A stretch of DNA of 64,000 nucleotides, taken from positions 1 through 64,000 of IMG/VR virus record IMGVR_UViG_3300046710_000151; one strand, written 5' to 3'. The position numbers were made by a program, and so were the translations under genes. Source of the DNA: a virus. Its lineage: Duplodnaviria > Caudoviricetes. The notes below the pieces were generated by a model. The model worked only from the letters and a program-made list of their open reading frames with translations, ran no database searches and had not been told where the DNA came from. Shown one piece after another: positions 52,191 to 52,300 of this stretch (the stretch's first letter is position 1; each line of letters begins with the position of its first letter).

Positions 52191-52300
52191 AATCTGATTT
52201 AACGGTTTTGCCTGTTCCGGCTGAATCCTTCCTTTCATCCGCCCACTCGGGCGGTCGAGGCGATCTTCAGTCGCCGCATACAGCGTCGGGGGCAGGCGAT
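52191..52300 (+). ncRNA. Candidate tracr/scaffold RNA upstream of the type V-like effector
   Basis: Hairpins CCGCCC-ACTC-GGGCGG (52239-52254) and GGCGA-TCTTCAG-TCGCC (52259-52275); TCTTCAGT, CCGCAT and TCCTTCC are complementary to parts of the array repeat. Confidence 0.45.

Follow-up and report, generated by a model that had tools for sequence, protein, structure and literature searches.

We report that positions 52210-52297 of a phage DNA window (by which we mean the whole stretch of 64,000 nucleotides analysed) very probably encode a structured RNA of ∼88 nt, which would serve a phage-borne, nuclease-dead Cas12f-type effector as its tracrRNA-like scaffold. The phage comes from a peat metagenome. 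The features of the locus are as follows.

52187-52189, + strand: ATG in the effector frame, overlapping the TGA of the upstream ORF as ATGA (database gene call P0001, 431 aa)
52210-52297, + strand: core of the putative scaffold (tracr-like) RNA, bounded by helix P1 (covariance-model match R1, alignment A2)
52210-52218, + strand: P1 5′ strand, GCCUGUUCC, partner 52289-52297; double changes across loci in 8 of 11 P1 pairs
52220-52223, + strand: P2 5′ strand, GCUG, partner CAGC at 52281-52284; 98% of cells paired, double changes in 3 of 4 pairs
52226-52232, + strand: AR1, UCCUUCC, anti-repeat to repeat positions -15 to -9 (GGAAGGA)
52239-52254, + strand: P3 hairpin, CCGCCC-ACTC-GGGCGG, a perfect 6-bp stem in the variable linker between AR1 and P4
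52259-52275, + strand: P4 hairpin, GGCGA/UCGCC, with AR2 as its loop; 100% paired across the alignment
52264-52271, + strand: AR2, UCUUCAG(U), anti-repeat to the last 7-8 nt of the repeat (ACUGAAGG)
52281-52284, + strand: P2 3′ strand, CAGC, within the conserved block CCGCAUACAGCG (52274-52285)
52289-52297, + strand: P1 3′ strand, GGGGCAGGC, partner 52210-52218
52313-53482, + strand: effector core, 389 aa, predicted Cas12f fold without nuclease residues (structure model, Foldseek, VIA)
53488-53811, + strand: partner ORF, 107 aa, helical, with homologues in 16 loci (alignment A3)
53812-54460, + strand: array of 11 units, well conserved only in the 15-nt repeat tag at their 3′ end

Searching the 64-kb window with covariance model R1 returned a single match, at 52206-52304 (75 bits, E 2e-21), and folding of the 95-nt stretch gave a z-score of -3.6. 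The split anti-repeat pattern TCCTTCC-N20-50-YCTTCAGT was found once outside the array when both strands were scanned, compared with 0.01 matches expected from 100 shuffles; the remaining 6 matches were the reverse complement of the array itself. No curated Rfam family matched positions 50000-56000 at E ≤ 1, and a promoter and terminator scan of 51400-54900 gave nothing near the element above shuffle expectation.

Our comparison set consisted of 25 related loci (designated by L numbers), and 15 copies of the scaffold were aligned. We found the same element in 20 related loci, always as one copy per locus, and three nucleotide blocks are shared upstream of the effector, namely YCGGCUGAAUC, CACGAGGC-N2-UCUUCA and GCCGCAUACAGCGUC. 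The alignment contains four covarying helices, P1, P2, P4 and P5, of which P1 closes the element and P5 is a GNRA-capped hairpin limited to a longer form of it; RNAalifold independently yielded the same four. Across the 15 scaffolds 93% of cells are paired, compared with 77% in shuffles, none of 500 shuffles reaching the observed level, and double-sided changes occur in 17 of the 25 pairs. When the partners are slid out of register pairing falls to 37-61%. The covariance model gave exactly one match per locus, on the effector strand, and recovered copies on which it had not been trained (L003/L005, L014/L015, L019 and L024) with E values from 7e-12 to 2.5e-8. Read by eye, P1, P2 and P4 are all retained in these copies though their sequences differ, P2 being GCGG/CCGC in L003 and ACGG/CCGU in L014, and P4 variants across the loci include GGCCC/GGGCC, GGUGA/UCACC (L003), GGCGC/GCGCC and GGCGG/CCGCC. 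The element is thus kept with compensatory changes although the effectors share just 35-60% identity.

The array units (53820-54435) end in GGAAGGAACTGAAGG, apart from one AGAAGG and one GAGGG variant, and the tags end at 53834, 53894, 53954, 54020, 54075, 54126, 54183, 54238, 54297, 54371 and 54435. The purine-rich tag forms no hairpin of its own, and the repeats of related arrays all end in such a tag. Six related loci (L015, L016, L017, L019, L020 and L022) have full repeats of 36-37 nt with a period near 72, and six others (L001, L002, L007, L008, L010 and L011) have arrays cut down to 14-17-nt tags separated by ∼16-28-nt spacers, with periods of 29-45. We noted that the array of the window is intermediate between the tag-only and the full-repeat arrays. 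Tag-only arrays would escape standard CRISPR finders.

The evidence that this RNA meets the repeats comes from covariation between the two, which the preliminary description of this DNA had put forward as a check. That description was made from the window alone and pointed to a hairpin at 52259-52275, TCTTCAGT at 52264-52271, CCGCAT at 52274-52279 and TCCTTCC at 52226-52232, all of which are present. It had proposed that the loop of the hairpin pairs with the end of the repeat, and that TCCTTCC pairs with GGAAGGA. Both contacts are real: AR1 and GGAAGGA form a duplex of -9.8 kcal/mol, AR2 and ACUGAAGG one of -8.7 kcal/mol, and both segments change in step with the repeat of their own locus. 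AR2 follows the repeat 3′ end in five variant classes, as listed here.

AR2 UCUUCAGU with repeat 3′ end ACUGAAGG: the window and most loci
AR2 UCCUCAGU with repeat 3′ end ACUGAGGG: L014/15
AR2 UCUCCAA with repeat 3′ end UUGGAGG: L022
AR2 UUUCCC with repeat 3′ end GGGAAG: L019
AR2 UUUGCCU with repeat 3′ end AGGCAAG: L024

Scaffold and array are both present in 17 loci, and in each of these AR2 makes 6-8 bp with positions -1 to -8 of the repeat. AR1 likewise covaries with the part of the repeat just 5′ of the AR2 target, in seven matched classes.

AR1 UCCUUCC with GGAAGGA (the window)
AR1 UCUCCUCG with CGAGGAGA
AR1 UCCUCUCA with UGAGAGGA
AR1 CCCUCUCAA with UUGAGAGGG
AR1 CCCUGCUC with GAGCAGGG
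AR1 CGCUCGUC with GACGAGCG
AR1 UCCUCUCCGAC with GUCGGAGAGGA

At a fixed register the AR1 run averages 8.1 bp against the repeat of its own locus and 2.7 bp against repeats of another class. Its length ranges from 7 to 13 bp, and it is weak in L020 (4 bp, an internal loop, 4 bp). AR1 sits 5′ of AR2 inside the multiloop closed by P1 and P2, and the 3′ end of the element is a P1 strand. Because both segments covary with the repeats of related loci, the sequences support the P4 loop and TCCTTCC as the two anti-repeat segments of the presumed scaffold. A third proposed contact, of CCGCAT with ATGCGG, did not survive comparison: ATGCGG occurs in just 3 of the 11 window repeats, and CCGCATACAGCG is near-invariant where the repeats differ at that place. 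We regard this pairing as a coincidence of the window, in which CC belongs to helix P4 and the rest to a conserved single-stranded block leading into P2. The hairpin noted at 52239-52254 (P3) does have a perfect 6-bp stem, but it is a lineage-specific part of a variable linker and not a feature of the family; hairpins of this type are missing from most loci and analogous ones were seen in L011 and L021 only.

In the minimum-energy fold of the free window RNA the AR2 loop is paired with the conserved GCUGAA of the 5′ block, and the comparative structure is 6.8 kcal/mol less stable than this fold. The protein or the crRNA may therefore be needed for the scaffold to take its working fold. We considered the AR2-GCUGAA pairing as a family feature and rejected it, since the 5′ block is unchanged when AR2 changes (L014, L019, L022 and L024), and when the 5′ block itself changes (L011, L013, L021 and L022) it pairs with the CAGC block of P2. 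The pairing might represent a closed state of the RNA.

The effector was modelled with AlphaFold on 32 homologues (pLDDT 87). Foldseek aligned the model to AsCas12f (8j12_A) with E 8e-17 and TM 0.55, and VIA gave Z of 20-22 to SpCas12f1, AsCas12f and OsCas12f, with an rmsd of ∼9 Å over ∼330 residues, and Z of 18.5 to the sigma-E-linked dCas12f. The effector has V/M aligned where AsCas12f has its RuvC-II Glu, the place of RuvC-I is taken by a conserved ATLGP with no acidic residue, and the C-terminus is one long basic helix with neither a CxxC motif nor a zinc finger. Because of this Cas12f fold and the missing catalytic residues we assign the effector, on its structure model, as a nuclease-dead Cas12f-like protein. 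In sequence searches of the effector ORF no Pfam family matched, OrfB_IS605 and Cas12f1-like_TNB included, and NCBIfam and PHROGs gave faint TnpB matches only. At 50% identity the effector family falls into 126 clusters, every one from metagenomes, phages or plasmids; on its contigs we found genes of phages (terminase, RecT, ERF) or of conjugation (TrbI, CagX), and a scan of genome contigs returned no relatives.

A partner protein of ∼100 aa, with the motif LGRINGNDSNRLK..LQFQ.AR..G.KGEPLRPLL.ELNP, always accompanies the effector. Its gene lies in mid-array, with repeat units on both sides, in L001, L002, L006/L012, L008, L010, L011 and L025. It matched no Pfam, PHROG or NCBIfam family, and its model (pLDDT 64) was too poor for a fold search. 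With as many as 4 mismatches in 20 nt allowed, the spacers had no target in the phage's own 76.6-kb genome; nor did they have one in the phage collection or, apart from shared or duplicated spacers, among the related loci.

The preliminary description had also placed the scaffold in an intergenic region and judged the annotated ORF start at 52151 to be wrong. Its view of the RNA as a guide scaffold for the adjacent Cas12f-fold effector agrees with ours, but the element is not plainly intergenic, since it shares the effector's reading frame. Scaffold and effector are directly adjacent in 13 loci, and in every one of them the effector frame runs through the scaffold without a stop and a start codon precedes the scaffold by 3-30 nt; within each of its three variable spacers (20-44, 7-43 and 15-117 nt) all lengths are congruent modulo 3. 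In three of these loci (L020, L021 and L022) the interval from the scaffold to the protein's first conserved strand contains no start codon. Because of the open frame, the upstream starts, the modulo-3 spacers and the lack of a later start in these three loci, translation must run through the scaffold. Database gene calls often extend the effector upstream, and the extensions are alike (PAES..RG.LQ..PHTASGA..DGEH). An upstream start is therefore not wrong in kind, since the frame is family-wide, but GTG 52151 itself is less plausible than either ATG 52187 or the internal GTG 52313, which is preceded by GAGGG. ATG 52187 is likely to start a 431-aa form of the effector that is translated through the scaffold, and the long form and a short form may both be made. 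We noted that a conserved block, GAYGGCGAGCA, lies just 3′ of P1 (52299-52313 in the window), where it provides an SD-like GAGGG 7 nt before GTG 52313; many loci have an in-frame ATG or GTG at this block.

It is unlikely, in our judgement, that the element is instead a cis-acting structure in the 5′ part of the effector mRNA, which senses crRNA or pre-crRNA by pairing and tunes translation without being carried by the effector. Such a regulator would be well placed just after the start codon in 13 loci, its AR2 can be sequestered in the free-RNA fold, and it calls only upon the repeat pairing, which we observe, and not upon protein binding of the element, which we infer. The arrangement of other loci argues against it. 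In L008 and L003/5 the order is scaffold, array, effector, so that the element stands upstream of the array and not of the effector, and in L024 a canonical TnpB gene separates the two; the detached copies of L003 and L024 are non-coding, lying outside any ORF, and still have every helix and matched anti-repeats. We count the fact that the detached scaffold travels with the array (L008 and L003/5) in favour of the scaffold reading. Moreover, we found no other conserved structured RNA in the loci, while to our knowledge every characterised member of the Cas12f fold uses a large scaffold RNA, and we know of no precedent for a Cas12f-fold protein without one. The scaffold reading has difficulties of its own: ribosomes would disturb an RNA embedded in a translated region, and the order of AR1 and AR2 is unlike that in characterised Cas12f1 tracrRNAs, to which homology is not implied.

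We also considered that only a protein-coding N-terminal extension is conserved, the RNA pairings being its by-products. This would explain the open frame, the length differences that are all multiples of three, the starts just upstream of the element and the three loci without a later one. We nevertheless consider it very improbable, since third codon positions are conserved here, unlike in the rest of the gene. Mean pairwise identity at codon positions 1, 2 and 3 is 0.69, 0.63 and 0.64 in the scaffold, compared with 0.67, 0.73 and 0.40 in the effector core, and identity at position 3 reaches 0.96 in the block of P4 and AR2. Further, amino-acid changes come in couples that compensate base pairs, with GNRA loops, the element covaries with repeats 1.5 kb away, the effectors of L008 and L003/5 have no N-terminal extension, and the L003 and L024 copies are untranslated. 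Selection thus acts on the nucleotides of the scaffold as well as on the frame, and the simplest reading is an RNA gene that is dual-coded with a tolerated N-terminal extension whenever it adjoins the effector. Chance complementarity, for which the preliminary description had allowed, or a decayed antisense repeat without present function is scarcely credible: each pairing is just 7-8 bp within the window alone, but the number of matches expected from shuffles is far below one, compensatory changes are kept across divergent effectors, and the two segments are permuted relative to such a repeat.

Two of the rearranged loci deserve a further remark. The detached scaffold of L008 is still crossed, in the family frame, by an ATG-initiated ORF of ∼60 codons (L008:129-447) that ends at a TGA inside the first repeat; this ORF either was left behind by a recent rearrangement or encodes a peptide that is translated separately. 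In L024, whose contig also has the conjugation genes CagX and TrbI, the scaffold (2106-2234) is followed by the TnpB gene (2287-3471, with Pfam OrfB_IS605 and Cas12f1-like_TNB) and then by the dead effector (3501-4649).

Under the scaffold reading, we propose that P1 and P2 would close a multiloop of which AR1 (UCCUUCC) forms one strand, and that the P4 hairpin would show AR2 (UCUUCAGU) in its loop. Each crRNA would retain the 15-nt tag GGAAGGA-ACUGAAGG directly 5′ of the guide, the 5′ half of the tag pairing with AR1 and its guide-side 3′ half with the AR2 loop. By analogy with the short repeat/anti-repeat pseudoknot of Cas12f1 and Cas12b (PMC11246509), the first nucleotide of the guide would thereby be placed at the P4 hairpin. 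The AR2 contact would have the topology of a pseudoknot, and a 7-nt hairpin loop paired over its whole length is sterically demanding. The effector would bind the scaffold and crRNA, be led to complementary DNA and bind it without cutting, the likely outcome being silencing, or recruitment via the conserved ∼100-aa partner. Placed as it is within the translated 5′ end of the effector ORF, the scaffold would be made from the effector's own transcript, and translation would probably compete with scaffold formation or processing, creating a feedback.

Among known RNAs the nearest are the tracrRNAs of Cas12f1 (AsCas12f1, Un1Cas12f1 and SpCas12f1) and Cas12b. Cas12f1 uses a long and a short repeat/anti-repeat (PMC11246509), and the element resembles these RNAs in its Cas12f-fold partner, its two separate repeat contacts, the short contact of 6-8 bp with the repeat nucleotides adjoining the guide, and its multi-stem scaffold. 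It also lies within its locus and its repeat complementarity is maintained in evolution, as is typical of type V tracrRNAs. However, at ∼88-125 nt it is smaller than Cas12f1 tracrRNAs (∼130-200 nt), roughly half as large, and it lacks their long bulged repeat/anti-repeat stem at the 3′ end, its anti-repeats standing in the opposite order and within P1/P2. In addition, it uses only the last ∼15 nt of the repeat, which is all that many related arrays keep, its gene is upstream of and inside the effector ORF, and the effector is nuclease-dead. We found no sequence or Rfam similarity of the element to known tracrRNAs. Short, disjoint contacts with the repeat, in place of one long duplex, are shared with the Cas12c tracrRNA, which forms three 4-7 bp stems with its repeat (PMC11246509), and with the Cas12d scoutRNA, but the effectors of these systems belong to different and much larger families that are nuclease-active or RNA-processing, and common descent is not suggested.

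The omegaRNA (reRNA) of TnpB offers a second parallel. It too overlaps the coding sequence of its own effector and is derived from the effector transcript, and the nucleotides just 5′ of its guide enter a pseudoknot-like contact, as proposed here. The first tag and guide come immediately after the scaffold in L003 and L008, in the manner of a single guide RNA. The overlap is nevertheless at the 5′ end of the ORF here and at the 3′ end in TnpB, there are no transposon ends, and in the window the guide is not fused to the scaffold but supplied by the 11-unit array 1.5 kb downstream, pairing in trans.

Nuclease-dead relatives are also known. TldR, dCas12f-sigmaE and the CRISPR-associated dCas12f share with the window effector a miniature TnpB/Cas12f fold without the RuvC triad, are partly phage-borne and, like it, are presumed to bind DNA and leave it uncut. 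The guides of TldR and dCas12f-sigmaE are single and omegaRNA-like, with no tracrRNA found (10.1101/2023.11.30.569447; PMC13472631). The family described here differs from them in its trans-pairing scaffold, its multi-guide arrays and its different partner of ∼100 aa, and it has no sigma factor; nor does it have the single adjacent gRNA, with a fixed guide against a host promoter, that characterises TldR. For the CRISPR-associated dCas12f cluster, covarying putative gRNA scaffolds have been reported upstream of CRISPR arrays (PMC13472631); compared by description only, this cluster and our family may be the same. In the literature we found no description of the effector family or of a tracrRNA inside a cas ORF.

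These comparisons lead us to a broader proposal, which we put forward tentatively and at somewhat less than even odds in our own estimation. A tracrRNA of ∼90 nt could be carved from the translated 5′ end of the effector mRNA, doubly selected as scaffold and as N-terminal extension and forming an autoregulatory switch between being translated and serving as scaffold; the whole system, with its dead Cas12f-like protein, ∼100-aa partner and arrays of 15-nt tags, could constitute a type V-like subtype not described before, which would serve phages and conjugative plasmids as a programmable DNA binder with multiple targets. The element defines a candidate for the missing RNA component of an uncharacterised family of ∼390-aa dead Cas12f-like proteins, making laboratory rebuilding possible. 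It is among the smallest scaffolds proposed for the Cas12f fold, and a 15-nt tag would suffice for it, which may be of use for compact programmable DNA binders. Its presumed dual coding with the 5′ end of the effector ORF mirrors the TnpB omegaRNA at the opposite end of the gene and may be an instance, found in nature, of translation competing with RNA biogenesis. For annotation it is a warning that such ‘N-terminal extensions’ can conceal RNA genes.

We also observed that the long-form scaffolds have a second inserted hairpin, P6, whose loop reads (U)UCAGUUC in 5 of 9 cases (L002, L008, L010, L011 and L025; for example L008:340-365) and is GNRA-like or unrelated in L001, L007, L013 and L018. 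The (U)UCAGUUC loop is complementary to GAACUGA(A) at the centre of the repeat tag, overlapping the targets of both AR1 and AR2. The centre of the tag is invariant, and the P6 loop may be either a third contact with the repeat or a competing mimic.
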